From NCBI GenBank assembly GCA_016934715.1, contig JAFGSI010000011.1:2227-66226 (forward strand): a DNA stretch of 64,000 nucleotides. The letters run 5' to 3'. Below the pieces are notes generated by a model, which saw nothing but the letters and a program-made list of their open reading frames with translations, had not been told where the DNA came from and did not search any database. Made by a program: the position numbers and the translations under genes. This document shows, in pieces, positions 5,186-21,584 of the stretch (position 1 is its first letter; every line of letters starts with the position of its first letter). The stretch is from Anaerolineales bacterium (GTDB lineage Bacteria; Chloroflexota; Anaerolineae; Anaerolineales; Villigracilaceae).

Positions 5186-6112
5186 ATGCGAAAGATTCTC
5201 GTGGTGCTGGCGCTGCTGACGGGGCTGCTGGTCCCGGCCGGGGCACAGGCCCAGGCGGAGGTTTCCTTCAGCAGCGTCGTGGTGCAGTTGTGGCCGGAAT
5301 ATGACCAGCCAGCCATGCTGGTCATCTATGACTTCATGCTCTCCCCAGACATGCCCCTGCCGACAGTTTTGACTATACGCATTCCGGCTGCGGCCGGCCA
5401 GCCCTTCGTGGTGGCAATCGGCCCGACCCCGGCAACCGTCGCCGACCAGGACGTGATCTACGAGACCTCCCCCGCCGGCGACTGGATCGAAGTGGCGATC
5501 AACATCCCGAACGGCAATCTTGCCGTGCGCCTGGAATACTACGACCCGGACCTCGCCAGGGACGGCGCCGCCCGGCACTACCTCTACACCTGGCCTGGCG
5601 ACCACGCTGCCACCTCGTTCCACGTCAGCTTCCAGGTCCCGGTCGGCGCGACCAGCTTGCAACTCTCCCCGGCCCTGCCTGACGTGGCCAGCGGCAACAA
5701 CCAGCTGACTTACTATGAAGGCGAACTCGGCCCACTGGCCGCCGGCCAGACATACACTCTGAGCGTAGATTACCAGAAGAACAGCAACGCCCTGAGCATC
5801 TCGGGGGCCTCGGTCCAACCGGCCGCACCGCTGGATGGAGATACACCCGGGCGCCTTTCGCTGCCCGAGATCCTGCCCTGGGTGCTGGGCATCCTGGGCC
5901 TGCTGCTGATCATCGGCGGGGTGATCCTGATCGGATCCTGGCAGGGTGGCAAACGGAACAGATCCGGGCGGCCCAAACACCGACCTTCCCGCCGCGCGGC
6001 GGAGACCGAGGCCGACGGCGGCCCGATCTACTGTCCGCAGTGCGGCAAGCGCGCACAACCGAACGACGCCTTCTGCCGGACCTGCGGCTCGCGCCTGCGG
6101 CGCGGCGAATAG
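5186..6112 (+). CDS. Secreted/membrane-anchored hypothetical protein with C-terminal cytoplasmic zinc ribbon
   Basis: Signal peptide MRKILVVLALLTGLLVPAGAQAQA, a late TM segment ILPWVLGILGLLLIIGGVILIG, and a C-terminal IYCPQCGKRAQPNDAFCRTCGSRL. Confidence 0.6.
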   Translation: MRKILVVLALLTGLLVPAGAQAQAEVSFSSVVVQLWPEYDQPAMLVIYDFMLSPDMPLPTVLTIRIPAAAGQPFVVAIGPTPATVADQDVIYETSPAGDWIEVAINIPNGNLAVRLEYYDPDLARDGAARHYLYTWPGDHAATSFHVSFQVPVGATSLQLSPALPDVASGNNQLTYYEGELGPLAAGQTYTLSVDYQKNSNALSISGASVQPAAPLDGDTPGRLSLPEILPWVLGILGLLLIIGGVILIGSWQGGKRNRSGRPKHRPSRRAAETEADGGPIYCPQCGKRAQPNDAFCRTCGSRLRRGE

Positions 6113-6145: not shown

Positions 6146-7660
6146 ATGACCATTCCTCCGATCATCCTGATCTATTTCTTCTACGGCCTGGCCTTCTTCA
6201 GCATGGGACTGCTGGTACTGGTCGAGGGGGGGCGGGCCCTCGACGCCCGCCTGCGGCGAGCGCTGCGCCCGCTGGCCGCCTTCGGCCTGGTCCACGCACT
6301 GCACGAATGGCTGGAGATGTTCGAGGCGATCGCCAGCCTGGACGGCGATCCCCTGCCCGACTGGCTTTTCGGTGTCCGGCTGGCCATGCTGGCCTTTTCA
6401 TTCCTGTCCCTGGGCGCCTTCGGCAGCTACCTGCTGGCAGTCTCGCGCCAGGCCTGGCGCCTGAGCCTGCTGGCGCCGCTCGGGCTGGAGGCTGTCTGGG
6501 TCTTTGGCATCCTGCTGTTGAAGAACCGCTACCCGATCCCCGACCTTTGGACAGTCGCCGACGTCTGGACCCGCTACGCCCTGGCGATCCCCAGCGCCCT
6601 GTTGGCCGCCGTCGGACTGGTCATGCAGCAGCGGGTCTTCCGCCGGGCCGGGCTGGCGACCTTTGGCCGCGATGCCCTGTGGGCAGCCGTCGCCCTGGGC
6701 TGGTACGGGTTGGTCGGCCAGATCTTCGTCCGGGCCTCGGCCCTGCCCCCCTCGAACGTGCTCAACGAGGAGCTGTTCCTGCAAATGTTTGGCATCCCGG
6801 TGCAGCTCTTCCGGGCGGTGGTGGCCGTGCTGGCCTCGGTGTTCATCATGCGCTTCCTGCGCGCTTTCCAGGTCGAGATCGACGGCCAGATTGCCCGCCT
6901 GCAGGAGGAAAAGCTCAGGGAAGCCGAACAGCGCGAGGCCCTGCGCGGCGAGATGGTCAAGCGGGTCATCGACGCCCAGGAATCTGAACGCCAGCGCATC
7001 GCCCGCGAGCTGCACGACGAAACCGGCCAGGCGCTGACCGCCATCGGCCTGGGCCTGCGCGGCCTGACGACCGCACTGCAGAGTGCCCGGCCCCGCAAGG
7101 GGACTGCAGGTCCGTCGCGCGCCGACCAGACCCTGCACCAGCTCCAGAACCTGACCGCCCATTCGCTGACCGAACTGCAGCGCCTGATCGCCGACCTGCG
7201 CCCCTCGCACCTCGACGACCTGGGCCTGCACTCAGCCCTGCGCTGGTACAGCCACGACCTGGGCGAACGGGCCGCAATCAAGGTCGAGGTGGAGTTCAAG
7301 GGCGAGGAACGCGAGCTCCCACCGCAGGTCAAGACCGCCCTGTTCCGCATCTCCCAGGAGGCCCTGACCAATGCCGTCAAACACGCCCTGGCCGATCATG
7401 TCCGGGTCACCCTGTACTACGCCCCCGAGACGGTCTCCTTGCGCATCACCGACGATGGCCAGGGCTTCGATCTGCCGGCTGCCCGCTTGAGCCAGCGTAT
7501 CTCGTGGGGATTAAAAAACATGGAGGAACGGGCCACCCTGCTGGGCGGCCGGTTCACGATCCGTTCGCGGCCCGGCCAGGGCACGACCGTGGAGATCAGC
7601 ATCCCCATCCAGGCCCCACAGGAGGAGAACGATGACGATCCGTCTGCTGCTGGTGGATGA
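6146..7660 (+). CDS. Sensor histidine kinase (HisKA_3/NarX-type) with polytopic N-terminal membrane sensor domain
   Basis: Multiple TM segments are followed by a coiled coil. The H-box is ERQRIARELHDETGQ and the HATPase_c region is DDGQGF...GLKNMEERATLLGG. It is a paralogue of the kinase at 18668..20209. Confidence 0.85.
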   Translation: MTIPPIILIYFFYGLAFFSMGLLVLVEGGRALDARLRRALRPLAAFGLVHALHEWLEMFEAIASLDGDPLPDWLFGVRLAMLAFSFLSLGAFGSYLLAVSRQAWRLSLLAPLGLEAVWVFGILLLKNRYPIPDLWTVADVWTRYALAIPSALLAAVGLVMQQRVFRRAGLATFGRDALWAAVALGWYGLVGQIFVRASALPPSNVLNEELFLQMFGIPVQLFRAVVAVLASVFIMRFLRAFQVEIDGQIARLQEEKLREAEQREALRGEMVKRVIDAQESERQRIARELHDETGQALTAIGLGLRGLTTALQSARPRKGTAGPSRADQTLHQLQNLTAHSLTELQRLIADLRPSHLDDLGLHSALRWYSHDLGERAAIKVEVEFKGEERELPPQVKTALFRISQEALTNAVKHALADHVRVTLYYAPETVSLRITDDGQGFDLPAARLSQRISWGLKNMEERATLLGGRFTIRSRPGQGTTVEISIPIQAPQEENDDDPSAAGG

Positions 7661-8282
7661 CCACCAGGTAGTGCGTTCGGGCCTGCGCATGCTGCTGGCC
7701 AGCGAGAGCGACGTCGAGATCACCTGCGAGGCCGGGACGGCCAGGGAAGCCATCGCCGCCGTGGAAAACTGCCGCCCCGACGTGGTCCTGATGGACATCG
7801 GCCTGCCCGATATGTCGGGCATCGCGGCCACCCGGGCGATCAAGAGCGCCCACCCGGAGGTGGCCGTGGTGGCCCTGACGATCCACGAGGACGAGGAGTA
7901 TTTCTTCAAGATGCTCGAGGCCGGAGCCGGCGGCTACGTCCCCAAGCGAGCCGCGCCGGAGGAGCTGCTGACCGCCATCCGGGCCGCGGCCCGGGGCGAG
8001 GTCTACCTCTACCCGTCGATGGCCAAGCTGCTGGTCAAGGACTTCCTGGCCCAGGAGCGCCCGGAGGAGGGTGTGACTTCGCTCGATGGCCTGACCGATC
8101 GCGAGCAGGAGGTTCTGCGCCATGTGGCCGAGGGCGCCACCAACGACGAGATCGCCGAGATTCTGGTCATCAGCCCGAAAACGGTCGCCCGGCACCGCGA
8201 GAACATCCTGCAGAAACTCAGCCTGCACTCGCGGGCCGAACTGGTGCGTTACGCCATCCGGAAGGGGATCATCAAGGCCTAG
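7632..8282 (+). CDS. Response regulator, NarL/LuxR family
   Basis: Receiver domain IRLLLVDDHQVV...DVVLMDIGLPDMSG plus a LuxR HTH, LTDREQEVLRHVAEGATNDEIAEILVISPKTVARHRENILQKL. It overlaps the end of the kinase gene. Confidence 0.9.
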   Translation: MTIRLLLVDDHQVVRSGLRMLLASESDVEITCEAGTAREAIAAVENCRPDVVLMDIGLPDMSGIAATRAIKSAHPEVAVVALTIHEDEEYFFKMLEAGAGGYVPKRAAPEELLTAIRAAARGEVYLYPSMAKLLVKDFLAQERPEEGVTSLDGLTDREQEVLRHVAEGATNDEIAEILVISPKTVARHRENILQKLSLHSRAELVRYAIRKGIIKA

Positions 8283-8299: not shown

Positions 8300-8319
8300 A
8301 TTGGGTAGATTTACCCAAT
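8300..8319. promoter_or_regulatory. Perfect 8-4-8 palindrome ATTGGGTA-gatt-TACCCAAT; candidate response-regulator operator
   Basis: Read directly from the sequence, 18 nt downstream of the RR stop. The half-site TACCCAA resembles the NarL heptamer TACYYMT. Related ATTGGGC copies lie at 8324-8330 and 8425-8431. Confidence 0.4.
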
Positions 8320-8343
8320 TTTGATTGGGCATCTTTTCACAAT

Positions 8344-8379
8344 CTCCGGACCCACAGGTAGGGTCCGGAGAGTATTTTT
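8344..8379 (+). terminator. Rho-independent terminator after the first two-component operon
   Basis: A 10-bp stem (ctccggaccc / gggtccggag) with a 7-nt loop, followed by agtattttt. Confidence 0.7.
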
Positions 8380-8503
8380 CCTCCGACAGAAGTTGAAACG
8401 TGGGCTGCGGCTCCCACGGCAAAGATTGGGCACCCGCCGAATTGTCTGCGCAGGACGGATCCCGTACACTATAAGTGAAAATCATAACGAAAGGAGCGCT
8501 GCC

Positions 8504-8623
8504 ATGGAAAGCACACTGATGGTCATCCTATTCACGATCGTCCGCCTGGGGGTCCCGATCGGCCTGCTGCTGGCCATCGGGGAGGCGATCCGCCGCCGCA
8601 ACCGCAAGAGCAGCCTTGTGTGA
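8504..8623 (+). CDS. 39-aa single-TM peptide (MESTL paralogue 1)
   Basis: AAGGAG sits 7 nt upstream of the ATG. The product is MESTLMVILFTIVRLGVPIGLLLAIGEAIRRRNRKSSLV. Its first 15 nt are nearly identical to the start of the next gene. Confidence 0.5.
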   Translation: MESTLMVILFTIVRLGVPIGLLLAIGEAIRRRNRKSSLV

Positions 8624-8629
8624 GACAGT

Positions 8630-8956
8630 ATGGAAAGCACGCTGTTTGTCGTTCTCGGTCTGCTGCTGCGGATCGGACTCCCGCTCGGGTTGACGATCCT
8701 GGTCTTTGCCCTGCTGCGCCGGTTGGACCAGCGCTGGCAGGCAGAGGCCAGGGCCTCCGTCCCGGTGGTCCCCGCCTCGCAGAAACCCTGTTGGGAGGTC
8801 AGGGGATGCCCGGAATGCCAAAGGAAGGATTGCCCGGCGGCGAAAAATGCCAGGACGCCCTGCTGGCAGACCTTCCGTTCCCGGGAAGGGACCTTGAAAG
8901 AGGCCTGTCTGGATTGCGACGTTTTCCGCCAGGCACCGCCTCCGGTGCGGGCGTGA
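8630..8956 (+). CDS. Small membrane-anchored Cys-rich protein (MESTL paralogue 2; two CW motifs, 7 Cys)
   Basis: 108 aa. An N-terminal TM segment MESTLFVVLGLLLRIGLPLGLTILVFALL is followed by PCWEVRGCPECQRKDCPAAKNARTPCWQTFRSREGTLKEACLDCDVF. It starts 6 nt after the stop of paralogue 1. Confidence 0.6.
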   Translation: MESTLFVVLGLLLRIGLPLGLTILVFALLRRLDQRWQAEARASVPVVPASQKPCWEVRGCPECQRKDCPAAKNARTPCWQTFRSREGTLKEACLDCDVFRQAPPPVRA

Positions 8957-8984
8957 TTTTTAGCCAAATGAGGAGATGCCGATT

Positions 8985-9926
8985 ATGAACAAACGCGAAC
9001 GTTTTGCCCTGGCAGCGGTTTTCGCCCTGCTGGCCGCGGGTGTGACCCTGGTGATGGTCCAGGCCAAGGCCGAGGCCCCGGCCCCAGCCGTCCAGGAACA
9101 GGAACCCTTGAACTGCTCCGAATGCCACCAGGACTTCCAGATGGAATGGGCCTCGGGGGCCCACTCATCGGCGACCAACGACCCGATCTTCGCCCAGGCC
9201 TGGGCCGATCAGGGTCAGCCCGGTGCCTGCATGGTCTGCCATGTCACCGGTTACGATCCCGGCACCGGCACCTGGGAACAGGACGGGGTGGCCTGCACAG
9301 CCTGCCACAACCCGGTCCCGACCAATCACCCCGAGGAACCCATGCCGGTGCAGGACACAACCGAACTCTGCGGCCAATGCCACAGCGACGCCCGCTTCGG
9401 ATGGCAGGAATGGCAGACCAGCACCCACTACCAGCGCGGCATGGACTGCACGGTCTGCCACGACCCGCACTCGGCCTCGCTCAAGAACGTCGAGGGCCTC
9501 GAGGCCCAAGGCCCCTCCGGCCTGTGCGTCAACTGCCACCGCGACTACAACATGGACTTCCCCTACTCCAATCATGCGATGGCCGGCCTGAACTGCGTCG
9601 ACTGTCACCTGCGCCACTTCGGCTCCTCTGGCGGCCGCACCATCCATACCATGCCCGATCACAGCTTCACCGCCAGCCTGACCTCCTGCACCTCCTGCCA
9701 CGACCGGGAAATGCACGGCCCGACCGATGCCGCAACCGGGGCCGAGATCACGACCCAGGCGGTTGTCCCGGCGACGAACGGCGCACTGGCCGAAGAACCC
9801 GCCCCGGTCAGCCCATACGGCTTCGCCGGCCTGGCCGGCCTGCTCGGGTTGGCTGGCGGCATGGTCCTGGCGCCCTGGTTGGAGCGAGCCTACCGCAAGC
9901 TGTCCCAAAAGGAAAAGTCGTCATGA
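8985..9926 (+). CDS. Octahaem c-type cytochrome with N-terminal signal/anchor and C-terminal TM helix
   Basis: Eight CxxCH motifs: CSECH, CMVCH, CTACH, CGQCH, CTVCH, CVNCH, CVDCH, CTSCH. The C-terminal hydrophobic stretch is GFAGLAGLLGLAGGMVLAPW. I chose the ATG at 8985, 9 nt after GAGGAG; the ORF opens at 8976. Confidence 0.85.
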   Translation: MNKRERFALAAVFALLAAGVTLVMVQAKAEAPAPAVQEQEPLNCSECHQDFQMEWASGAHSSATNDPIFAQAWADQGQPGACMVCHVTGYDPGTGTWEQDGVACTACHNPVPTNHPEEPMPVQDTTELCGQCHSDARFGWQEWQTSTHYQRGMDCTVCHDPHSASLKNVEGLEAQGPSGLCVNCHRDYNMDFPYSNHAMAGLNCVDCHLRHFGSSGGRTIHTMPDHSFTASLTSCTSCHDREMHGPTDAATGAEITTQAVVPATNGALAEEPAPVSPYGFAGLAGLLGLAGGMVLAPWLERAYRKLSQKEKSS

Positions 9927-10693
9927 GCGAAACCAACCTCAACCGTCGTGATTTCCTGAAACTGGCCGGCGTCAGCGTGGCCGCCATCGGTGGGTTGCAG
10001 ATCTACCGCCGGGCGGAGGCCTCCAGCGGAGGCCCGGAGGGCGAGCACCAGTGGGCAATGGTCGTCGACCAGTCCAGGTGCACCGGCTGCGATTACTGCA
10101 CCCTGGCCTGCCGGGCTCACAACGACATCAACCCCGAGATCTCCTGGAACCAGGTCATCGAAACAGGTGCGATCAGCGGCAAGCAGGTCTACCTCGCCCG
10201 GCCGTGCATGCACTGCGAACACGCCCCGTGTGTGGATGTCTGCCCGGTGCAGGCCAGCACCTACCGCCCGGACGGCATCGTGCAGATGGATTACGATCGC
10301 TGCATCGGCTGCCGCTACTGCGAGGTGGCCTGCCCCTACGGGGCGCGCTCCTTCAACTGGGAGGCCTTCACCGGTCGCAACCCGGCCGTCCCGCAGTGGG
10401 GGCAGCCCGAGGTCGCCCGTCGCCCGCGCGGCGTGGTCGAGAAGTGCTCCTTCTGCTCCCAGCGCATCGACCGCGGCCTGGCGCTCGGCCTGACCCCCGG
10501 CATCGATCCCGACGCCACCCCGGCCTGCGTGGTACGCTGCCCGACCGGGGCGCGCATTTTTGGCGATCTGAAGGACCCCGAATCAAATGTCAGCCAGCTC
10601 CTGCGTGGGCATGCCTCTTTCCGCCTGCGCGAAGACCTGGGCACCAGGCCGCGGGTCTACTACCTGCCGCCCAATGGCTCCCCGGAGGCCTGA
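9923..10693 (+). CDS. 4Fe-4S ferredoxin-type iron-sulfur subunit (NrfC/HmcB/PsrB/DmsB family) with Tat signal
   Basis: MSETNLNRRDFLKLAG is a twin-arginine signal. The Cys clusters are CTGCDYCTLAC, CMHCEHAPCVDVCP, CIGCRYCEVACP and CSFC..CVVRCP. An ATGA overlap links it to the upstream cytochrome stop. Confidence 0.85.
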   Translation: MSETNLNRRDFLKLAGVSVAAIGGLQIYRRAEASSGGPEGEHQWAMVVDQSRCTGCDYCTLACRAHNDINPEISWNQVIETGAISGKQVYLARPCMHCEHAPCVDVCPVQASTYRPDGIVQMDYDRCIGCRYCEVACPYGARSFNWEAFTGRNPAVPQWGQPEVARRPRGVVEKCSFCSQRIDRGLALGLTPGIDPDATPACVVRCPTGARIFGDLKDPESNVSQLLRGHASFRLREDLGTRPRVYYLPPNGSPEA

Positions 10694-10694: not shown

Positions 10695-11954
10695 ATGAAG
10701 AAGATCGCCAAACTGAAACTGACCCCCTGGATGGCCTGGGTCGGCCTGCTGGTCACGGTCATCGCCGCCGGTGTGGCAGCCGGGCTGATGGTCTTCGTGA
10801 AGGGGCTCTCGCTCACCAATCTGACCGACATGGTGCCCTGGGGCCTGTGGATCACGATCGACCTGTCGTCGATCGCCATCAGTGCCGGCGCCTTCAGCCT
10901 GTGTGCGGCTGTCTACCTGCTGGGCCTCAAGCGCTATCAACCGTTGGCTCGCACGGCGACCTTCATCGGCCTGATCGGCTACACCATGGCCCTGTTGACC
11001 CTGCTGATGGACATTGGCCGCCCCGACCGATTCTGGCACGCGGTGGTCTACTGGAACCGGCACTCGCTGCTCTGGGAAGTGACCATGTGCGTCACGCTTT
11101 ACCTGGCCGTGCTGGCGCTGGAAGCGATGCCGATCTTTGCCCAGTTCGAGTGGCTGCGTACCCGCCTGCCCAGACTGGCCGCCAGGATGGAACGCGTCCA
11201 CCACTACGCACCCTACCTGGCGATCGTCGGGTTGGGGCTGTCGATGCTGCACCAGTCCTCGCTGGGGGCGGTCTACGGCGTGCTCAAGTCACGCCCGTTG
11301 TGGTACCGGCCCGACATCTCGATCCTGTTCATCGTCTCGGCCGTGGCCGGCGGGATGGCCCTGACCGTCTTCGCCTCGATGCTCTCGGCCCGCATCACCC
11401 GGCGTGCCAACATCGACGACGGGCTGCTCGAGCGGGTGGCGTATTTCATCGGCTGGATCCTGGTCGGCTACCTGTATTTCCGCTTCTGGGACGCCCTGTC
11501 AATGACTTACACTTACGAACCCGGCCGGACCGAGGGCCTGCGCATGCTGACCAGCGGCCCGTTCGCCTTCAACTTCTGGATCGGCGAGATGCTGCTGGGG
11601 GCGGTGGTTCCGATCCTCCTGCTGCTGCGCCGCCGGACCCGTCAGGTTCCCTTCTGGCGCATGCTGGCCCTGCTGCTGGTCGTCGGCGGCGTGGTGGCCT
11701 ACCGCTGGGACACCAACCTGTCCGGCCAGTTGATCGTGCTGTCCTATCTGCCGGGTGAACCGGCGGTCGCCTACACCCACTACGTCCCTTCACTGATCGA
11801 GTTCGCCAGCGGGGCGGGCGTGGTGGCCTACGGCCTGCTGGCCTTCTCGCTCGGCGTGCGCTACCTCGGGGTGGTCAACCACGAAGCAGCCGCCGAGGAG
11901 CACTTCGAGGAGATGCCGGCCCGCGAGGCCCTCCCGGCCCCGACCGGAGATTGA
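10695..11954 (+). CDS. NrfD/PsrC/HmcC-family polytopic membrane quinone-interacting subunit
   Basis: 419 aa and highly hydrophobic. VPWGLWITIDLSSIAISAGAF and DIGRPDRFWH are typical NrfD-family motifs. GGAGG lies 6 nt upstream of the ATG. Confidence 0.8.
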   Translation: MKKIAKLKLTPWMAWVGLLVTVIAAGVAAGLMVFVKGLSLTNLTDMVPWGLWITIDLSSIAISAGAFSLCAAVYLLGLKRYQPLARTATFIGLIGYTMALLTLLMDIGRPDRFWHAVVYWNRHSLLWEVTMCVTLYLAVLALEAMPIFAQFEWLRTRLPRLAARMERVHHYAPYLAIVGLGLSMLHQSSLGAVYGVLKSRPLWYRPDISILFIVSAVAGGMALTVFASMLSARITRRANIDDGLLERVAYFIGWILVGYLYFRFWDALSMTYTYEPGRTEGLRMLTSGPFAFNFWIGEMLLGAVVPILLLLRRRTRQVPFWRMLALLLVVGGVVAYRWDTNLSGQLIVLSYLPGEPAVAYTHYVPSLIEFASGAGVVAYGLLAFSLGVRYLGVVNHEAAAEEHFEEMPAREALPAPTGD

Positions 11955-12050: not shown

Positions 12051-13748
12051 CTATTGTTCCGGCGCGCCGGCCAGGATCCATTGGATCACGATGTCCAGCT
12101 CCTCGGGCGACAGGTTGACGAAGTGGCTGCCGCGCTGGACCTGGACCAGCAGGCTGGCGTCAGGATTCCCGGCCAGGATCACCGGCCCGTCGTCCCCGCC
12201 AGCCACCGCACCGGAGTGGGTGCTCAGGTCAAGCCCGGCGTTCGGGGCGGCGGGATTGTGGCAGGCGGCACAGCGCAGGGAAAAGAGCGGACCCACATTC
12301 GCGGCAAAGGTCGGCGTCCCGACCACCGCAGCCAGGGTCGGCTCGGGGGAGGGGGGCGGCAGCTGATCGCGCAGGGTCTCGCGCAGGGCCGGGGCGTCGA
12401 AGGCGGCGTACGTGTAGGCGCTGCCATGACAGGCGCTGTTCGAGCAGAAGGAGGTGTTGGATGTTCCGCCCGGATCGCCGGTGGTGTGGCAGTTGGAGCA
12501 GGTGGCGTCGAAGACCGCGTTGTGCAAGGCGATCCAGTTGGGGTTGAGGTGCGACCCGGGCTCCGGCCCGCGGCTGATCTCGATAGTGGCGACGAAATCG
12601 CCCTCCCCGGCCACGACCGGGATCGAGTGGCACAGGTTGCACTCCAGGCGGATGGCTTCCTGGTCCAGGTTCAGGTGCGTGCCGTCATGGCAGCGGAAGC
12701 AGCCGGGAGCGGTGATGTGGCCAAGGTTGTTCGGATGGGTCGTCCAGTCGACCTGCTGGTCGTGGAAGACCGAGCGGTCATAGATCTCCTGCACGACGAT
12801 CACCGCCGCCGCGAGCTGCTCCTGGTTCCCGGCAAAAAACTCCGGCAGGTTCTGGCGGTAATAATCGGTCAGGCTGGCGATCCCCTCCATGGCCGCAGCC
12901 CGGGATTCGTAGCCAGCCTTGAGCACCCGCAGCGCCTGGCGGCGGATCTGGGGGATGCCGGCATCGATCAACCCCAGGGTCAGGGCCCGGTCGACCGACT
13001 CTTCGGGGGTCAGGAACGCGTGCGTGACCCGGTTGTGACAGGTGATGCAGTCCATCTCGATCAGCTGACTCTCGTCGAGCGTTGCCGGGTCGAAGTCGGA
13101 TTCAATATCGATGTACTCGGTAGAAGTGCCGTCGTTGTTGACCACCCGCACATAAGGGATCTCCTGGCGGGCCAGGTCATTGGCGTAGTAATAGACCGGG
13201 TTCTCGATATGCCAGTGGATGCCGCGTCCCAGCCCCTCGCGGGCGCTGCCGCCCCCGGTGTGCATGATCAGGTAGGTGTCGGCCTGGGTGTTGCCGTTAT
13301 CGTTGCCGAAATGGGTGATCACCCGCAGGCTGTCGTCGGAGAAGGTCTGCGGGGCATGGCAGCGCTCACAGGTCACCTGCGCCGGACGCGAGCGGGTGGC
13401 CCGGATGGGGAATTCATAGGTCTGGAAGACCATGGCGGTGAGCTCGCGCACGTCCTCCGATTTGCGGCGCAGCTGCTCCCCGAGCGAGGCGCGCCCGATG
13501 TGGCACTCGCTGCAATAGACATTGGCATGCGGCGAGAGCAGGTAGGTCACATCCTGGGGCGGCATGGTGTGGCAGGCCGTCCCGCAGAAGGTCGGGGAGT
13601 TGGTGTATTCCCAACCGTACGTGCCGCCGACCACCAACCCGATGGCCAGCAGGCCGAGAATGGCATAGGGCAGGATGGTGACCCAGCGCGGTGAACCCGC
13701 CGGCGGGAAGAAAAAATTCCGGGTCGCCTGCTTGAAGCGTTTGACCAT
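12051..13748 (-). CDS. Membrane-anchored multihaem cytochrome: NapC/NirT-like N-terminus, extra haem sites and a C-terminal PSCyt1-like monohaem module
   Basis: A TM segment ILPYAILGLLAIGLVVGG is followed by CGTACH, CSECH, CERCH, CITCH, CFRCH, CNLCH, CSNCH, CSNSACH (CX4CH) and CAACH. The C-terminus is GPLFSLRCAACH...ILAGNPDASLL...WILAGAPEQ. I chose the ATG at 13748, 8 nt after GGAGG. Confidence 0.8.
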   Translation of the reverse strand: MVKRFKQATRNFFFPPAGSPRWVTILPYAILGLLAIGLVVGGTYGWEYTNSPTFCGTACHTMPPQDVTYLLSPHANVYCSECHIGRASLGEQLRRKSEDVRELTAMVFQTYEFPIRATRSRPAQVTCERCHAPQTFSDDSLRVITHFGNDNGNTQADTYLIMHTGGGSAREGLGRGIHWHIENPVYYYANDLARQEIPYVRVVNNDGTSTEYIDIESDFDPATLDESQLIEMDCITCHNRVTHAFLTPEESVDRALTLGLIDAGIPQIRRQALRVLKAGYESRAAAMEGIASLTDYYRQNLPEFFAGNQEQLAAAVIVVQEIYDRSVFHDQQVDWTTHPNNLGHITAPGCFRCHDGTHLNLDQEAIRLECNLCHSIPVVAGEGDFVATIEISRGPEPGSHLNPNWIALHNAVFDATCSNCHTTGDPGGTSNTSFCSNSACHGSAYTYAAFDAPALRETLRDQLPPPSPEPTLAAVVGTPTFAANVGPLFSLRCAACHNPAAPNAGLDLSTHSGAVAGGDDGPVILAGNPDASLLVQVQRGSHFVNLSPEELDIVIQWILAGAPEQ

Positions 13749-13828
13749 GTGCGCCACCTCCAGAATAAATGGAGCGGGCTTCCAGGCCCTTGGCGCGGCC
13801 TGGAGGCCGGATCCTACCTGTAATTATA

Positions 13829-15055
13829 TTACCGTTCCGGGGCCCCGGCGTCGATCCAGTCGCGGACCCGCTCCAGATCTGCGGAACGCAATGTGGCAGG
13901 ATGGCTGCCCTCTGCCTGGACGAGGACCAGCAGGCTGTTGATGCTGTCACCCGGCAGGATCACCGCTCCGTTACTGCCGCCCTGCAGGGCCTCGGCATAG
14001 CTGGTCAGCGACAGGCCAGTCGGTGCGCGGCTGGCATGGCAGATGCCGCATTGCTGCTGGAACAGGGGCCCGATGGCGGCCTCCCAGGTCAGGGGACCCG
14101 GAGCCGGGGTCGGGAGCGGGGTTGGGGTCTGCGGGACGAAGATCTCGATCTGGGTTTCGGGCGGGGCGATCGTGGCGGTTGTCTCGGCGCCGACGAAGCC
14201 GTAGACGCCGAACAGCATGGCAACCGTCAACAGGCCGGCGATCGGCCAGTAGATGCGCTGGCGACGGCGCAGGGTCCGGGAGTCGACCGGCCGCTCGGCC
14301 AGCCCGGCCTTGATGTCGGCCAGTTCGAGAGGATGCTCGTGCAGCATCTCCTCCTCGCTCAGCCTGCCGGTGAACATGCTCTTGTTGAACCTGCGGATGT
14401 GGACACTGTACATGTGCCAGATGAAGATGGCTGCCACCGCCAGCAGGGCCTCGCCGCCATGGGCCGCCTTGGCTGCCGGGATGGCCTCGCCGGGCAGGAT
14501 CCGGGCAGTGGCGATCGGGTTCCACATCATGAAGCCGGTCAGGCCCATGATGATCGTGCCCCACACCAGGGCCCAGTATTCCAGCTTCTCTTCGAAAGTG
14601 TAGCGGCCCATCTGCGGACGGGTCCTGGCAACCCCCAGGTTGTACAGGAAAGCCTGCCAGGCATCCTTGACATCCTTGATGACGGGCAGCATCGTCAGCG
14701 GGACACGCAGGACGAAGATCTTGGAACCGATGTCGATGATGTGGTAGATGGTCAAAAGCATCAGCACCACGGCGAAAACGTGGTGGAGGCTGCGGGTCAT
14801 TTCGATGCCGCCGAAGAAGCGGATCATCGCCTGGGCCCAGCCGGCCAGCGGAAACTTCTGTGGCAGGCCGGTGAGCCCCAGCAGTGAGAAGGAGGTCAGG
14901 AGCAGGAAGTGGGCAATCCGCTGAGTCCAGTGGAAGCGCGCGTAGACCGCCGGCTGCTTCTTGGCCGGGGCTTTCGTCCTTCCGATCGCCTTCCCCTTGG
15001 CGGTCCCTTTCTTCACTGCCGGGGCCGCCGGTTTGGGAGTGGATTTCTTGCTCAT
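13829..15055 (-). CDS. b-type cytochrome (FdnI/HydC-like membrane dihaem family) fused to a C-terminal PSCyt1-like c-type monohaem module
   Basis: A Lys-rich N-terminus is followed by RFHWTQRIAHFLLLTSFSLLGLTGL and further TM helices with conserved His residues. The C-terminus is GPLFQQQCGICH...ILPGDSINSLL...WIDAGAPER. An ATGA overlap links it to the upstream gene. Confidence 0.75.
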   Translation of the reverse strand: MSKKSTPKPAAPAVKKGTAKGKAIGRTKAPAKKQPAVYARFHWTQRIAHFLLLTSFSLLGLTGLPQKFPLAGWAQAMIRFFGGIEMTRSLHHVFAVVLMLLTIYHIIDIGSKIFVLRVPLTMLPVIKDVKDAWQAFLYNLGVARTRPQMGRYTFEEKLEYWALVWGTIIMGLTGFMMWNPIATARILPGEAIPAAKAAHGGEALLAVAAIFIWHMYSVHIRRFNKSMFTGRLSEEEMLHEHPLELADIKAGLAERPVDSRTLRRRQRIYWPIAGLLTVAMLFGVYGFVGAETTATIAPPETQIEIFVPQTPTPLPTPAPGPLTWEAAIGPLFQQQCGICHASRAPTGLSLTSYAEALQGGSNGAVILPGDSINSLLVLVQAEGSHPATLRSADLERVRDWIDAGAPER

Positions 15056-16212
15056 ACGCGCTTCGCTCCTTTACGACGGTCGATCAACCGGCGGACAAAG
15101 TCGCTGATGACGAAGAGGATCATCGGGCCGAGCACACCAGGGATGAAGAATTTGTAGAACAGGTTGACATAGTAAACCAGCGGGTAATTCTGCGAATCGG
15201 GGATGTAATGGCTCATCCAGGCGTCGGGGAAGTTCGCGCTGGCATCGGGGTGGCACTGCTGGCAGCGAATCAGGATGTTCTCCTTCATTGCCAGGCCGTT
15301 GACCGGATCATCCACCGGGGCGATGGCGTGGATGCCGTGGCAGTCATAGCAGACCGGCTTGTTGGTCGGCTGGTCAGGCGAGGTGCTTTCGAACAGGGTG
15401 ACGGTCGTGCCGTGGAAGTCGGCCACGTAGGTGTTCAGGACCTGGGTCGAGATGCCGTACGGCTGCATGCGCTCGGGATCCGTGTGGCAGCCGGCACACA
15501 ACAGCGGCGAGTTGAGCCGGAATTCGTTGGTCGTCGGATCGCCGATGTCGTGGACGCCGTGGCAGTCCATGCAGGTCGGGACATCGGGATTGCCCTCCCC
15601 GGTCAGGGCCGCGCCGTGTACGCTGTGCGCATACTGATCGTAGATGGTGCTGTGGCAGCGGGCACAGGTCTGCGGAATGTGCAGGCGCGCCTCCGGAAGC
15701 AGGGTGCCACTGCGGTCGGTGATCGGGGTCTGGGTGTGAGGGTTGTGGCAGTCGGTGCAGACGGCGGCGTTGGTGTTCCCGCCCGCCAGGGCTCGCTGGT
15801 GGACCGAGTCGAGGGTCGCGTCGTACTGTTCGGCGTGGCAGGCCTGACAGACAGTGTACATCTCGAGGGTGTATTCGCGCGCGCTGCGGGCAGTCAGTTC
15901 GGGGTGCGGGAACTGGGAAATGGTGGTATGACAATCTGTACAGGGCAGGTTGCTGTGGACCGAGTCGTCGTAGTGGGCCGGGTCGATGGTCAGGACCAGG
16001 GCCCCCCCGTCGGGCAGCGGGCGCTGCTGGCCGGGCCGGCCATGACAGGTCAGGCAGGCCTCGTTCTGGGGCAGGTCCGCCGGGAGGGGAGAGGGGGAGG
16101 CTCCCGCCGGCCTGGTCAGGATCGCCAGGACCGTCCCCAGCAGCGCGATCCCGACCACGAAGATCGGGATGCGCAGCCTGCGGGTGGAAGAATGGGTACC
16201 GGGTGCGTGCAT
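15052..16212 (-). CDS. Nonahaem c-type cytochrome with N-terminal anchor and C-terminal TM helix
   Basis: Nine CxxCH motifs: CLTCH, CTDCH, CQACH, CTDCH, CARCH, CMDCH, CAGCH, CYDCH, CQQCH. The C-terminal hydrophobic stretch is FFIPGVLGPMILFVISDF. I chose the ATG at 16212, 6 nt after GGGAG. Confidence 0.85.
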   Translation of the reverse strand: MHAPGTHSSTRRLRIPIFVVGIALLGTVLAILTRPAGASPSPLPADLPQNEACLTCHGRPGQQRPLPDGGALVLTIDPAHYDDSVHSNLPCTDCHTTISQFPHPELTARSAREYTLEMYTVCQACHAEQYDATLDSVHQRALAGGNTNAAVCTDCHNPHTQTPITDRSGTLLPEARLHIPQTCARCHSTIYDQYAHSVHGAALTGEGNPDVPTCMDCHGVHDIGDPTTNEFRLNSPLLCAGCHTDPERMQPYGISTQVLNTYVADFHGTTVTLFESTSPDQPTNKPVCYDCHGIHAIAPVDDPVNGLAMKENILIRCQQCHPDASANFPDAWMSHYIPDSQNYPLVYYVNLFYKFFIPGVLGPMILFVISDFVRRLIDRRKGAKRV

Positions 16213-16287
16213 TGCGTTCTCCCTTGGGAAATTTGGATCACGAATGAGTGCTGGAAAAACACGGCGGGCCTGGGATGGGCCGTCCCC

Positions 16288-16331
16288 AACCAAAAGAGGA
16301 GAAGCGAGGGCAGGCGGCCTGCCCTCGCTTC
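16288..16331 (-). terminator. Rho-independent terminator after the decahaem lipoprotein gene
   Basis: A near-perfect palindrome gaagcgagggcaggc g gcctgccctcgcttc. On the minus strand it is followed by TCCTCTTTTGG. Confidence 0.65.
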
Positions 16332-16344
16332 CGATCGAACTGGA

Positions 16345-18468
16345 TTACGGCCGGGTCATGGCAGACACGTCGACGTTCATATAGACGAGCGTGTCGTACA
16401 GGACCTGGATCACGTAGCGGCCGTTGTGGGCAAAGGCGCCCGGATCCTTCTGGAAGTACTGGTAGTTGTAAGCCGCGATCAGCAGGCGCGGGGACCAGGT
16501 GGAGTACCCACCCTCGCCCTCGTCGACCAGGCCGTTGGCATTGGCATCCGCAAAGAAGTACGGATAAGCGGTCGGGCTGTAAGCGATCGGTGTGCTAAGC
16601 GTATCCGCCGCATAATCCTGGATGGCCAGGTAGAGCAAGTCGGCCATGGTAGCGATCTCCTGGTCGAGCGGCTCGGCAGCGTCGCCGTCACCGTCGTAAT
16701 CGATGGCATTGGCGGTCATGCGGATCTCGCGCACGTCGCTGATGCCGGTGTGGCAGGTGGCGCAGGTCGAGAGAGCAATTTCCAGGGAGTGGGCATCGTG
16801 GCAGGACAGGCAGGTGTTGAGGTTGCCGCCCATACTGGCCGGGTGATCATTCTGACCGAAGTACGCATTGCCGGCGAACTGGTACATGCCCTGGGCTTCG
16901 TCGCCGAAGAGCGTGGCGCCGGCCGCAAAGTAGTGGATGTTGCGGAAACGGATGGACGCCGAAACCTCATCCGCCGGCGTGCTGCCGATCACACGGTTGA
17001 CGCTGGCCATCGACTCGCGCCCCTGGTGGCAGGTGATGCACAGGTTGCTGTCGGCGCCCTCTCCGAAGGTGACGGACAGGCCGCTCGGCATGCTGACCGA
17101 ATCAACCGTGTAGCGGTTGGGCCAGTTGGTCTCGTCGTGGCAGGTCGAGCATTGGAAGCCGTTGGAGGCCGGCTGGGCGATCGTGCTGCCCGCATTGGCC
17201 AGGAACATGGGCAGGCCGGTGGCGGTGTGACAGCGAACGCAGCCGTTCGGTACGGTGCCGAAATCGGGATCGCCGTCCCAGTGGCGGAAGGGCTCGGTGT
17301 TGCCGGCGAAGTGCCCGGCATCCTGGCGGCGCATGGCGCTCATATCGATCGGGTTGGACAGCTGGGTATTCAGGTCAGCCAGCGAGTCGAACAGCAGCTG
17401 GATGATGTACTTGTTGCCATGGGCGAAAGCCCCTGGGTCCTTGACCGACAACTGGTAGTTGTAGGCGGCGGCAAGCAGGCGCGGGGTCCAGGCAGTGAAC
17501 CGATTGGGGACGGTGGCCTCATCTTCATCCAGTATGCCATTGGCATTGGTGTCGATGAAGAAGTACGGGTAGGCGTCCGGCGAGTAGGCAACCGCCGTGC
17601 CGGCAATCTCAACGGCGTAAGCCTGGATGCCGGCCAGGAGCGCTGCCTGCATGCCCTGGATCTCGTAGTACATGCCTTCCGTGAGGTTGCCGTCGCCATC
17701 GTAGTCGACCGTGGAGGAGGGCTCGCGCACGTCGCGCAGGGCCTCGACCGTATCGACCTCGTGGCAGAACGAGCAGGTCTCGAGCTGGATTTCGAGGGTG
17801 TGCGAATCGTGGCAGTCCACGCAGGTGCTGACGCCCTCGACGTGCTCATAGCGGGAGTCGTAGGACATGCCTTCGTACTGGTAGCCGCCTCTGGCCTGGC
17901 CGCCATAGAGGGTGGCCGCCGCGGCGAAATAGTGGATGTTCAGGAAGCTGAGGTCGGCGCTGACCGTATCAGGAGCCATGCCGGCGGTGGCTTCCGCCAC
18001 GCTCCCGCCAGACTCACGTCCCTGGTGGCAGACCATGCAGCGAGCCTCAGGGCCGAGGCCGGTGACGGTCACGCCGGACGGGAAGGTGACACTGGAGAGA
18101 GTCTGGGTGGCATCATTGTGGCAGGTGGTGCAGGAGATGACGCCGCCGGGTGCCGCAACGTCAGCATCCACCATGCCGGCTGCGCTGCCGTCACCGCCCA
18201 GGAAGTCAACGTAACCAGCCGGGCTGTGGCAGCGGGCGCAGTCCGCCGGAATGACGGCCGGATCGTCCCCATCCCAGTGAACGAAGGCTTCCGCCGAGGC
18301 ATCGGCGTGGGCTGAGCCGGCCCAAGCCGCCAGGAAGGGAGGTTCGGCTGCCGGAGCAGCCACCTGCCCGCCGGTCATCTCTTCGGTGGCGCCGCTTCCG
18401 CAGGCGACCACGACCGTCGCCAAAAGCAGCAAACCACCGATCAGGAAGAGCAGTCTCTTTATGGACAT
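16345..18468 (-). CDS. Decahaem c-type cytochrome lipoprotein built from two pentahaem repeats
   Basis: Signal and lipobox MSIKRLLFLIGGLLLLATVVVAC. Ten CxxCH motifs: CARCH, CTTCH, CMVCH, CVDCH, CSFCH, CVRCH, CSTCH, CITCH, CLSCH, CATCH. The two ~330-aa halves align, e.g. NIHYFAA..., DYDGDG..., YPYFF.D.NANG, AAYNYQ, DPGAFAH. I chose the ATG at 18468, 9 nt after GAGGAG. Confidence 0.85.
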   Translation of the reverse strand: MSIKRLLFLIGGLLLLATVVVACGSGATEEMTGGQVAAPAAEPPFLAAWAGSAHADASAEAFVHWDGDDPAVIPADCARCHSPAGYVDFLGGDGSAAGMVDADVAAPGGVISCTTCHNDATQTLSSVTFPSGVTVTGLGPEARCMVCHQGRESGGSVAEATAGMAPDTVSADLSFLNIHYFAAAATLYGGQARGGYQYEGMSYDSRYEHVEGVSTCVDCHDSHTLEIQLETCSFCHEVDTVEALRDVREPSSTVDYDGDGNLTEGMYYEIQGMQAALLAGIQAYAVEIAGTAVAYSPDAYPYFFIDTNANGILDEDEATVPNRFTAWTPRLLAAAYNYQLSVKDPGAFAHGNKYIIQLLFDSLADLNTQLSNPIDMSAMRRQDAGHFAGNTEPFRHWDGDPDFGTVPNGCVRCHTATGLPMFLANAGSTIAQPASNGFQCSTCHDETNWPNRYTVDSVSMPSGLSVTFGEGADSNLCITCHQGRESMASVNRVIGSTPADEVSASIRFRNIHYFAAGATLFGDEAQGMYQFAGNAYFGQNDHPASMGGNLNTCLSCHDAHSLEIALSTCATCHTGISDVREIRMTANAIDYDGDGDAAEPLDQEIATMADLLYLAIQDYAADTLSTPIAYSPTAYPYFFADANANGLVDEGEGGYSTWSPRLLIAAYNYQYFQKDPGAFAHNGRYVIQVLYDTLVYMNVDVSAMTRP

Positions 18469-18667
18469 TTCGTGATTCTCCTCAAATGTTTTTGGGGGCG
18501 AACAGTGGAAAAGGGGATTGGGTGGGAGCACCTCCTTTTGGGCCAATAGCCCCAAGCAAGATCTTGTGAAGAACAACCATATTGGGTTTATAACCCCAAC
18601 GACGATTAAAATCAAGTTAATTATTAATGACAATCTCGTGACATATATCACTCAATTCGCATGACAA

Positions 18668-20209
18668 ATGGCCATAAATCTTCAGGGAGTTGGTGTAAAA
18701 TACCCAATAGAGTCGCTCCTCATGTCCGGGCAAGCATTCGATCAACTGCTTTACTTCATCTACTTTGTCTATGGACTGGCCTTTTTCGGCATGGGCCTGA
18801 CCATGGCACTCGAATCGGGCCGTTCGCCGGCCCTGGCGGAGGCCCGTCTCCTGCGGCCCCTGGCCGCCTTCGGCCTGATCCACGGCTCCCACGAGTGGCT
18901 GGAGGCCTACCTGCTCCAGGCCCACGCCACCGGGGCTGCTCTGCCGGGCTGGCTGGACTGGGCCCGCTGCACAATCCTGGTGACCTCCTTCCTGTTCCTG
19001 CTCAACTACGGGATCCGCACCTTCCAGACACCCGGGTACAGACCGTTGCTCGGGATGCGCCTGGGAATCGCCGTCCTCGGGATCTACAGCCTGGTCATCC
19101 TGGCCAGCGCCATGCTGACCTACTGGAACGGCGAGGTGCCCTGGGCCCGCCTGCTCGACAGCCTGGCCCGTTACCTGCTGGCCGTGCCGGGAGCGGCCCT
19201 GGCAGCCCTGGCGCTGCGCTTCGAGTCGGACGAAGCCAGGAGCCGCGACCGCCGAACACTGTCGCTCTCCCTGACGGTGGCCGCGGCCGGCTTCGGGGTC
19301 TACAGCCTGACCCAGGTCTTCGTCCCGCCGCTGGAGATGGCCCCGGCCAGCTTCCTCAACACGCTCAGCTTCCAGAGCCTGGCCGGCTTCCCGATCCAAC
19401 TGGTGCGCTCGGCGATGGCGGTCATGATCACCCTCAGCCTGGCCCGTGCCACCCAGGAGGTCGAAAAGGAACGCCAGCAGAAGCTGGTGACCGCCCAGCA
19501 GGCCCGCCTGGAGGCCCTCGAGCAGGTCCAGGCCGAACTGACCGGACGCGAGACCTTGCGGCGTGAACTGCTGCGCCATACCGTCCGGGCCCAGGAAGAG
19601 GAGCGCGGCCGGATCGCTCGCGAGCTGCACGACGAAACCGCCCAGGTCCTGGCCGCCTTCGGCCTCGACCTGGCCACCCTGCAGACCATGCTCCCGGTCC
19701 GTCCGGACGCGCAGGCCCTGGTCGGCAGGCTGCAGGCGCACAGCCGGGAGATATCGCAGAGCCTCTACCGCCTGGTCCACGATCTGCGCCCGGCCCAACT
19801 GGACGATCTGGGTCTGGTCCCCGCCCTGGACTACCTGGGCGAGCGTGCGGCAGCCAAGGGACTGGAGCTCCGCCAGCAGATCGTGGGCGAGGTCCGCCGG
19901 CTGGAGCCCGTGATCGAGACAGTGCTCTTCCGGGTCGCCCAGGAGGCGCTCAACAACGTGGCCCGCCACGCCAGCACGAACCAGGCCGAGATTTGCCTGG
20001 TGTACGAGACTCAGGAAGTGACCCTGTGGGTTCGCGACCCGGGCCGCGGATTCAATCCCACCCAGTCCTTCATTCCACCGCGCGGCTGGGGCCTGGCCGG
20101 GATGCGCGAACGGGTCGAATCAGTCGGCGGACACTTAAAAGTTACCTCCGCCCCAGAGGAGGGAACCACCGTCGAGGTGGCCATCCCGGTCTTTGACTTG
20201 ATTCCCTGA
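18668..20209 (+). CDS. Sensor histidine kinase (HisKA_3 type), paralogue of 6146..7660 with the same membrane sensor domain
   Basis: YGLAFFGMGL...LRPLAAFGLIHGSHEWLE matches YGLAFFSMGL...LRPLAAFGLVHALHEWLE in the first kinase. The H-box is ERGRIARELHDETAQ. The start is uncertain; an alternative ATG lies at 18722. Confidence 0.85.
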   Translation: MAINLQGVGVKYPIESLLMSGQAFDQLLYFIYFVYGLAFFGMGLTMALESGRSPALAEARLLRPLAAFGLIHGSHEWLEAYLLQAHATGAALPGWLDWARCTILVTSFLFLLNYGIRTFQTPGYRPLLGMRLGIAVLGIYSLVILASAMLTYWNGEVPWARLLDSLARYLLAVPGAALAALALRFESDEARSRDRRTLSLSLTVAAAGFGVYSLTQVFVPPLEMAPASFLNTLSFQSLAGFPIQLVRSAMAVMITLSLARATQEVEKERQQKLVTAQQARLEALEQVQAELTGRETLRRELLRHTVRAQEEERGRIARELHDETAQVLAAFGLDLATLQTMLPVRPDAQALVGRLQAHSREISQSLYRLVHDLRPAQLDDLGLVPALDYLGERAAAKGLELRQQIVGEVRRLEPVIETVLFRVAQEALNNVARHASTNQAEICLVYETQEVTLWVRDPGRGFNPTQSFIPPRGWGLAGMRERVESVGGHLKVTSAPEEGTTVEVAIPVFDLIP

Positions 20210-20229
20210 TCACAGGTTGAAGGGAGAAG

Positions 20230-20928: not shown

Positions 20929-21018
20929 AAAACGCTCATGAGACCACATTCTCACCCCGGTTTAATCTCCATATGGATAATTGACCTTATTCCCTTTCGA
21001 TCGGTAGGAGGAATATCC

Positions 21019-21498
21019 ATGCGACTTAAATTCATCCTGGGCGGAGTTGCCATCCTGGCCGCCATCGTCTTCCTGATCGCCACATCCATGAACGCCAGTG
21101 CCGAATACTTCCTGACGGTCGACGAGGTCCAGGCCCGCCAAAGCGAGATCGTCGGGCGCAATCTGCGCATATCCGGCGCCGTGATTGGTGATACAATTTC
21201 CTATGAGCCGGATTCCCTGACCCTGACCTTCGTGATCGCCCATATCCCGGGCGGCAATCGCGAGATCGAAGCCCAGGGCGGACTGGCCCTGGTGCTGCAT
21301 GAAGCGGTCACAGATCCGACCCGGACCCGCCTGACCGTGGTCTACATCGGTCCGAAGCCGGACCTCCTGCAGGATGAGGCCCAGGCGATCGTCACCGGCC
21401 AGTTGGGCGACGACGGCATCTTCTACGCGGACGAACTCCTGCTCAAGTGCCCGACCCGCTACGAGGAGGCGCTCCCCGAGCAGGCCCTCGAGAACTAG
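21019..21498 (+). CDS. ccmE: Cytochrome c maturation haem chaperone CcmE, Cys variant (CxxxY instead of HxxxY)
   Basis: An N-terminal TM anchor and OB-fold region are followed by FYADELLLKCPTRYEE. This aligns to the canonical ADE(V/L)LAKHDExY with His replaced by Cys. AGGAGG lies upstream of the ATG at 21019. Confidence 0.8.
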   Translation: MRLKFILGGVAILAAIVFLIATSMNASAEYFLTVDEVQARQSEIVGRNLRISGAVIGDTISYEPDSLTLTFVIAHIPGGNREIEAQGGLALVLHEAVTDPTRTRLTVVYIGPKPDLLQDEAQAIVTGQLGDDGIFYADELLLKCPTRYEEALPEQALEN

Positions 21499-21584
21499 TT
21501 TGACAGATGTGACGGCTTTCGAGGTACGAGCGGAACTCCCGCTGGGAACTTCGCGAAGCCGTTCCTTTGTTTTAAGGAGTCGCC

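Follow-up and report, generated by a model that had tools for sequence, protein, structure and literature searches.

Complexes of the NrfD family are accompanied by small subunits with a single transmembrane (TM) helix, such as ActD and ActG of alternative complex III, HmcD and NhcD, none of which is known to carry a Cys-rich cytoplasmic domain. On the side of signal transduction, BceAB, LiaF and MgrB are accessory membrane partners of the intramembrane-sensing histidine kinases BceS, LiaS and PhoQ, respectively. The locus described here, located in a stretch of 64,000 nucleotides (nt) from an Anaerolineales bacterium (GenBank assembly GCA_016934715.1, contig JAFGSI010000011.1, positions 2,227 to 66,226 of the forward strand; hereafter, the window), encodes two small membrane proteins in consecutive open reading frames (ORFs). 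Judged from sequence comparison, ORF1 and ORF2 are a conserved paralogous pair within a Chloroflexota module that comprises a histidine kinase, a NarL-type response regulator and a complex of octahaem cytochrome, NrfC and NrfD. It is tentatively proposed that the helices of both proteins dock on NrfD, and that ORF2 is a tethered cytoplasmic metal or iron-sulfur (Fe-S) co-sensor connecting the complex with the kinase, a reading that is regarded as a reasonable possibility rather than as probable. In broader terms, ORF2 probably serves the respiratory complex and its two-component system as a sensor or an accessory component.

ORF1 (positions 8504..8623, plus strand) encodes a single-pass membrane microprotein of 39 amino acids (aa), with the sequence MESTLMVILFTIVRLGVPIGLLLAIGEAIRRRNRKSSLV, which is an anchor-only paralogue of the N-terminus of ORF2. 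It is preceded by a ribosome-binding site (AAAGGAG) located 7 nt 5' of the gene, and the residues R14, P18 and G26 are invariant in the alignment of its homologues. Only 6 nt separate its stop codon from the start of ORF2 (8630..8956, plus strand), which encodes a membrane-tethered Cys-rich protein of 108 aa, deposited in GenBank as the 'hypothetical protein' MBN2385839.1. A single strongly hydrophobic segment is found in each ORF, with a Kyte-Doolittle maximum over 19 residues of 2.45 in ORF1 and 2.34 in ORF2. Coordinates and hydrophobicity thus agree with a previous sequence-only reading of the window, which had described two ORFs of these lengths, 6 nt apart and with one TM helix each. Their position between the response regulator, with its palindromic site, and the octahaem gene was also confirmed, and both ORFs head the cytochrome operon. 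The same reading supposed that genes of this size usually go without annotation; this holds for ORF1, which is absent from the GenBank annotation and was found only as a Logan gene call, but not for ORF2. It had also drawn attention to the MESTL start shared by both proteins, which is indeed present here, with 14 of the first 15 nt identical. Within the relatives, however, these 15 nt are alike at just 4-9 positions, and the proteins start with MKS... and MD.... The identical start is peculiar to this genome, and a functional meaning for it was rejected on that ground, although the underlying paralogy is real.

ORF1 and ORF2 are genuine genes, far beyond what chance could produce. A search of 5.8 billion database proteins returned 39 close homologues of ORF2, with lengths of 106-118 aa, and an exhaustive HMMER scan (E<=0.001) yielded 323 representatives at 50% identity, nearly all of them from Chloroflexota, 105-170 aa long and unnamed. 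Among 80 genome loci with ORF2, all except one are labelled Chloroflexota. A hidden Markov model built from ORF1 revealed, for about 79 of 82 loci, an ORF1-like ORF of 34-51 aa immediately 5' of ORF2, with a spacing between both genes that ranges from -4 to 20 nt. ORF1 is regarded as coding because its substitutions follow a codon-position pattern (4329, 2391 and 5834 at the first, second and third positions, respectively), with 2975 synonymous codon-pair differences. It could be argued that both are chance ORFs in GC-rich DNA, where many long spurious ORFs are expected, and that the true gene is, for example, the 161-aa ORF that spans them on the minus strand (8482-8967), with a GC content of 0.78 at third codon positions. 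This antisense ORF, in which the GC content at second positions is 0.61, was rejected as a GC-rich shadow ORF and not a gene. Hundreds of homologues on the plus strand with invariant Cys, Trp, Arg and Pro residues, the codon periodicity of ORF1, its synteny, and the conserved ribosome-binding site and promoter upstream leave an artefact with next to no probability, and this explanation is effectively refuted. The sequence-only reading had named in advance a lack of syntenic homologues or of conserved Cys positions as what would speak against it, and what was found is conserved synteny together with six conserved Cys.

The ORF2 protein begins with a TM anchor (residues ~5-29; 8642..8716, plus strand) in which R14 and P18 are near-invariant, being present in 289 and 290 of 293 sequences, respectively. 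It is followed by a juxtamembrane helix with the sequence RRLDxRWQxEA (8717..8758, plus strand), in which D33 and W36 are conserved to a similar extent (291/293 and 292/293). The AlphaFold2 model of ORF2 (mean pLDDT 91.2) shows a continuous helix from residue 2 to residue 43, followed by short helices packed into a compact domain. Anchor and domain are joined by a linker of variable length, from ~10 to 70 residues, and family members range from ~105 to 170 aa. When ORF1 was compared with the N-terminal 37 residues of ORF2 by using hhalign, both aligned in register from residue 1 with a probability of 96.5% (E 8e-10), while a control with an unrelated TM helix reached 0.2-0.3%. An Arg and a Pro four residues apart inside the helix (R14-x3-P18) are common to both families. 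According to this profile comparison, the anchor helices of ORF1 and ORF2 are paralogous. Two other identities were tried and rejected: a hinge helix of the TatA/TatB type, owing to the one continuous helix in the model and to hydrophobic stretches of the wrong length, and CcmD or HmcD for ORF1, which gave no family match, while the Ccm genes of the window lie elsewhere (20938 onward).

Both proteins are predicted to insert with the N-terminus outside and the C-terminus inside, which would place the Cys domain in the cytoplasm. This prediction is based on the distribution of positive charges and on the soluble relatives of the Cys domain, none of which has a signal peptide. The mean number of Lys plus Arg residues in ORF2 is 0.04 in the N-terminal flank of the helix versus ~6 in the C-terminal flank (283 sequences), and the corresponding values for ORF1 are 0.14 and 3.4. 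The cytoplasmic location that had been suggested from the window alone is thus supported, as a predicted topology. With the reversed orientation, the Cys domain would face outward, disulfide-bonded or metal-binding, beside the cytochrome and NrfC; the outer face holds all the redox cofactors of the complex, and six Cys could form three disulfides. Such an arrangement is improbable in view of the strong charge asymmetry and the signal-peptide-free soluble homologues, as well as the absence of a Tat motif from ORF2.

The Cys-rich domain of ORF2, termed here two-CW-like, occupies residues ~52-101 (8783..8932, plus strand) and shows the pattern C54W55-x4-C60-x7-C68-x9-C78W79-x13-C93-x2-C96. All six Cys are present in 282 of the 293 full-length members. 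Taken one by one over the same 293 sequences, C78, W79 and C93 are found in every member, C96 in 292, C54 in 291, C60 in 286, C68 in 284 and W55 in 274. Along with both Trp, P77 and G87 are likewise conserved, and 232 of 284 sequences have exactly the same spacing from Cys to Cys (C-x5-C-x7-C-x9-C-x14-C-x2-C). A seventh Cys had been included in the pattern first described. It is true that the ORF2 of the window holds all seven, with the spacings given if they are counted from Cys to Cys; however, C63 is a Cys only in this window, where other members have E, A, S or T, and the seven-Cys ligand set was rejected for this reason. In seven members, C60 and C68 are jointly missing, which leaves a core of four Cys.

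Searches with known families linked this domain, weakly, to only one of them. Full-length ORF1 and ORF2 had no match in Pfam and NCBIfam at E<=1; a Pfam scan of 36 domain-only sequences gave no family matched by more than 3 of them; and neither the PDB sequence search, with full-length and domain-only profiles, nor Foldseek against the PDB, run with the model of the whole protein and with that of the domain alone (mean pLDDT 85.6), returned a match. Profiles for ferredoxin, ZAS, WhiB, zf-CW and zinc ribbon were not matched by ORF2 in Pfam, the PDB or Foldseek, and an anti-sigma factor of the ZAS type was rejected, as the motif HxxxCxxC is absent. The sole library family matching was NCBIfam NF045718 ('two-CW domain'), found with 22 of the 36 domain sequences at a best E of 0.02. 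The domain of the window scores 10.4 bits (E 0.65) against a curated cut-off of 35 bits, and the soluble relatives reach 10-19 bits, also under it. The match covers model positions 2-75 of 80 with only ~48 residues, which implies large deletions with respect to the model. A domain-only search of a large protein database recovered seven small proteins and no fusions to other domains, and the soluble intermediates P0307-P0311 connect the ORF2 domain with NF045718. The earlier guess of a two-CW-type domain, for which a profile search had been suggested, is thus reasonable as to the only family that matches and the two Cys-Trp dipeptides, but the scores stay below the cut-off.

The ORF2 domain and NF045718 have in common two Cys-Trp dipeptides, further invariant Cys, a terminal CxxC and a small size. 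They differ in length (~50 residues versus an 80-position model) and in that the domain of ORF2 is tethered by an N-terminal TM helix plus a conserved juxtamembrane helix, with a TM-only paralogue adjoining. From these profile matches, the domain of ORF2 is best seen as a short and distantly related form of an uncharacterised family, set in a new architecture with a membrane tether. A full-text literature search on two-CW found no paper, nothing specific was found on NrfC or NrfD in Anaerolineales, and plasmids searched by tblastn with a soluble two-CW-like protein yielded noise only. Soluble two-CW-like proteins of 59-90 aa, with no TM helix, were observed adjoining a molybdopterin oxidoreductase gene (locus L092, 1737-2000) and an 806-aa multihaem cytochrome (locus L093, 4548-4727), and from their position beside respiratory genes, the domain family may have a wider link to respiratory enzyme loci.

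In the window, ORF1 and ORF2 are flanked on the plus strand by the remaining members of the module. Upstream lie a histidine kinase (6146..7660), with a multi-TM N-terminal sensor domain followed by HisKA_3 and HATPase, and a response regulator of the NarL/GerE type (7632..8282), assigned by profile matches. Both genes overlap by 29 nt (7632-7660), as they do in relatives, which fits translational coupling of a two-component pair. Downstream are encoded an octahaem c-type cytochrome (multihaem cytochrome, MHC; 8985..9926), with eight CxxCH motifs, an N-terminal signal anchor, a C-terminal TM helix and multihaem matches in Pfam and NCBIfam; an NrfC/DsrO-like Fe-S subunit predicted to be exported by Tat (9917..10693, start approximate; NF045797 DsrO 2e-65, TAT_signal match); and an integral membrane subunit of the NrfD/QrcD type, quinone-interacting by its matches (10695..11954; PF03916 5e-34, NF041784 7e-68).

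This neighbourhood was studied across 86 distinct loci (designated by L and a number), and counts were made only where enough flanking sequence was available (75 downstream and 76 upstream). ORF2 is immediately followed by MHC-NrfC-NrfD in 70 of 75 loci and preceded on the same strand by a kinase and a regulator in 64 of 76, so that the co-occurrence with NarL-type kinase-regulator pairs and multihaem operons that the sequence-only reading had proposed to look for was found. Gene order is not fixed: it is ORF2-ORF1-MHC-NrfC-NrfD in L089 and ORF1-MHC-NrfC-NrfD-ORF2, convergent with regulator-kinase, in L078, a layout that L081 shares in a tblastn map which did not cover ORF1. In three different gene orders, both ORF1 and ORF2 stay beside the complex. 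In a distant Caldilineales-like clade, represented by metagenome loci, the cluster is repeatedly split, with kinase-regulator-ORF2 facing a convergent ORF1-MHC-NrfC-NrfD. Here ORF2 is co-directional after the kinase-regulator pair, sometimes followed by a small cytochrome. The split was confirmed for both genes in L086, L096/L099, L112 and L119/L120, and for the ORF2 side only in L097, L116 and L123. Moreover, L085 holds kinase-regulator-ORF2 and no complex, L090 holds ORF2 without the complex, and L087 holds ORF1-ORF2-complex and no kinase. It follows from the split clusters that ORF1 tracks the complex, while ORF2 occupies the junction and goes with the kinase-regulator pair once the two are separated. 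A full cluster of the Chloroflexota type was also seen in a metagenome-assembled genome labelled Bryobacteraceae (Acidobacteriota; L027, contig CAWCAT010000021.1), as a result of either a binning error or horizontal transfer.

The kinase that accompanies ORF2 belongs to one specific family in all arrangements. Its membrane domain (6146-6900) is 39-49% identical in all distant loci, whatever the gene arrangement, and has conserved residues of charged or polar character within the membrane or close to it (E27, R30, D33, H50, E54 and W55). This domain is unmatched by Pfam and NCBIfam, which matched the kinase core only. Some distant loci show a GAF-type insertion of ~200 aa before the core.

A connection with NrfD is suggested by the distant clade, where this subunit holds an extra N-terminal TM helix with the motif R/S-x-G-x-P ... 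G (in L087, 10467-10580, with the sequence MLQDILMLTAFFILRIGVPLLLVIGIGY; in L083, 10402-10510; in L119, 6909-6800 on the minus strand). NrfD proteins of the Anaerolineales type, including that of the window, are without it. The extra helix matches the ORF2 anchor with a probability of 92.7% (E 4e-7), and its fusion to NrfD suggests that the helix type of ORF1 and ORF2 packs against this subunit.

The 220 nt between the regulator gene and ORF1 conserve several putative regulatory features. A likely promoter for the ORF1-ORF2-cytochrome operon (8442..8470, plus strand) consists of TTGTCT and TACACT separated by a 17-nt spacer; in an alignment of 11 intergenic regions, the positions of both hexamers do not vary, and the score, 8/12, is under the threshold of a consensus scanner. 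TTGTCT-N17-TACACT probably acts as a promoter. About 60-70 nt upstream of the putative transcription start lies the palindrome CGTGGG-N8-CCCACG (8399..8418), in which the TGGG and CCCA columns are invariant in the same 11 regions, where the ribosome-binding site is also conserved; this is a candidate site for binding of the regulator. Four heptamer-like sites, ATTGGGYA, are clustered at 8300..8432, a region that includes a palindrome noted previously (8300-8319). These 133 nt hold four of the eight matches in the window, where 2.8 are expected by chance, and the sites are partly conserved in relatives. A terminator-like hairpin (8343..8371, plus strand), with an 11-pair stem (8 G-C) and a T-run, would close the kinase-regulator unit, and an equivalent hairpin follows the regulator gene in relatives. 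Because of this terminator and of the conserved promoter and palindromes, ORF1, ORF2 and the cytochrome genes would form their own regulated transcription unit, presumably under the control of the adjacent NarL-type regulator. At the other end of ORF2, a weak 5-pair hairpin followed by TGATTTTTAG (8937-8953) overlaps the stop codon and could be a partial terminator before the cytochrome gene.

According to the proposed mechanism, both proteins would insert in the membrane through their shared R14-x3-P18 helix type and dock by means of it on the NrfD subunit. ORF1, being the helix alone, would behave as a small subunit of the complex, while ORF2 would add the RLDxRW juxtamembrane helix, the flexible linker and the cytoplasmic six-Cys domain, whose most likely ligand is a metal or an Fe-S cluster. 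Because it combines such a domain with a membrane anchor, ORF2 may act as a tethered redox or cofactor sensor that reports the state of the complex or of the cell to the kinase, which in turn would adjust how strongly the operon is transcribed from the conserved promoter that precedes ORF1. The fixed spacing of the six Cys, the confident and compact model, the predicted cytoplasmic placement and the recurrent weak matches to NF045718 are in agreement with a sensor-like domain.

Several observations weigh against this mechanism. In 12 of 76 loci, ORF1-ORF2-MHC-NrfC-NrfD is found without a same-strand kinase-regulator pair upstream, although three of them (L058, L078 and L081) have the pair close by on the opposite strand. 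Transcription of ORF2 is shared with the complex in most genomes, and not with the kinase, an organization that also fits a plain subunit or an assembly factor. The set of metal ligands is uncertain because of the seven members without C60 and C68, the similarity to the two-CW family is weak, with scores far under the curated cut-off, and the function of NF045718 is itself uncharacterised. The similarity with the NrfD helix spans only ~29 TM residues and falls to a probability of 50% against ORF1. Finally, metal binding, docking on NrfD and contact with the kinase are deduced from sequence and gene arrangement.

Instead of reporting to the kinase, ORF2 could take part in maturation, as a tethered chaperone of Fe-S clusters or other cofactors for NrfC, or in haem supply to the octahaem cytochrome, with a role like that of NapF or NapD and with ORF1 as a helper or scaffold. 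The strict co-location of both genes with MHC-NrfC-NrfD is in line with this idea, as are the flexible linker, suited to substrate capture, and the predicted presence of the Cys domain in the cytoplasm, where the clusters of NrfC, which has a TAT signal, are inserted before export. In addition, soluble two-CW-like proteins adjoin a molybdopterin oxidoreductase and a large multihaem cytochrome, and Ccm genes are found nearby both in the window and in L086. Nevertheless, ORF2 follows the kinase-regulator pair and not NrfC in the split clusters, L085 keeps ORF2 with this pair and no complex, and ORF2 is unlike any known chaperone family in Pfam and NCBIfam, which makes a role in maturation fairly unlikely. 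Another explanation is that ORF1 and ORF2 are stoichiometric, non-signalling subunits of an NrfD-type complex, in which the Cys domain would form a Zn-stabilised cytoplasmic cap, comparable in role to the single-TM accessory subunits of other complexes of the NrfD family. Operon membership in three gene orders, the anchor-like helix fused to NrfD in one clade and an ORF1-ORF2 spacing suited to translational coupling would be expected from such subunits. A linker that varies between ~10 and 70 residues is unusual for a fixed cap, however, and ORF2 goes with the kinase-regulator pair where clusters are split and is without the complex in L085 and L090; a purely structural role is thus considered unlikely. 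The choice among the three functions originally offered for both proteins (accessory redox sensor, anti-regulator or assembly factor) is narrowed, in that the split clusters favour for ORF2 a sensor linked to the kinase and for ORF1 a role linked to the complex.

Other genes were observed around the module. Just upstream of the kinase lies a gene for a secreted or membrane protein of ~300 aa with a C-terminal zinc ribbon (5186-6112 in the window; 4585-5487 in L001). On the minus strand, positions 12051-18651 hold four cytochrome genes: one for a fusion of a NapC/NirT-like protein with PSCyt1 (568 aa), a second for a cytochrome of the b561 type (408 aa), for which PSCyt1 was also suggested by tblastn in relatives and by Pfam hits, and two for multihaem cytochromes (413 and 768 aa). 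In many relatives, synteny with the cluster extends to the first three of these genes. A second pair of HisKA_3 kinase and GerE regulator (18668-20928), with no ORF2-like gene after it, lies directly upstream of genes for system I cytochrome c maturation (20938-24732), which encode CcmE, CcmF and a thioredoxin-like protein. In L086, ORF2 is followed by a short cytochrome gene (8422-8964; 171-180 aa) and, ~0.8 kb further, by an RVT_1 reverse-transcriptase gene (9808-10665), which may represent an intron or retroelement disrupting a second copy of the operon.

The locus defines a conserved module of five to seven genes, two parts of which had been overlooked, one as an unannotated gene and the other as a 'hypothetical' one. 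ORF1 is a clear case of a functional microprotein missed by standard annotation, an uncharacterised two-CW-like Cys domain gains a concrete genomic context, and a specific helix motif turns out to be common to two microproteins and, in one clade, to NrfD. Hypotheses on docking, on signalling to the kinase and on metal content follow that can be put to a direct test. Sediments, soils and wastewater are rich in Anaerolineae and related Chloroflexota, which encode many multihaem cytochromes. A role in extracellular electron transfer has been proposed for these cytochromes (bioRxiv 10.1101/2021.08.23.457424).

Compared with known systems, ORF1 and ORF2 resemble ActD/ActG and HmcD/NhcD in being small membrane proteins co-encoded with a module of cytochrome, Fe-S protein and NrfD, but there is no detectable homology, and in the present case the association with the complex is a predicted one. 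Small cytoplasmic modules with invariant Cys ligands, tied to the control or assembly of anaerobic respiration, are also found in FNR, NreB, WhiB-like proteins, ZAS and NapF. None of them has the spacing C-x5-C-x7-C-x9-C-x14-C-x2-C, while ORF2 lacks both HxxxCxxC and the ferredoxin motif CxxCxxCxxxCP and has no match in Pfam, PDB sequences or known folds. The systems BceAB-BceS, LiaF-LiaS and MgrB-PhoQ share with this locus a kinase whose input consists of membrane helices only, and small membrane proteins whose genes lie within or next to the operon under control, a layout that would allow feedback or activity sensing. They differ in that their sequences are unrelated (ORF1 and ORF2 showed no homology to MgrB, LiaF or other modulator families in Pfam and NCBIfam at E<=1), and in the cytoplasmic six-Cys domain of the putative partner ORF2. 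It is conceivable, although unlikely, that ORF2 is the founding member of a new class of tethered Fe-S co-sensors of the two-CW type, which would sit on a respiratory NrfD complex by way of a dedicated helix and signal redox state or activity to an intramembrane-sensing kinase, in a 'respiratory-flux sensing' circuit governing cytochrome-based, possibly extracellular, electron transfer in Chloroflexota, with ORF1 as a helix-only competitor or partner for the docking site.

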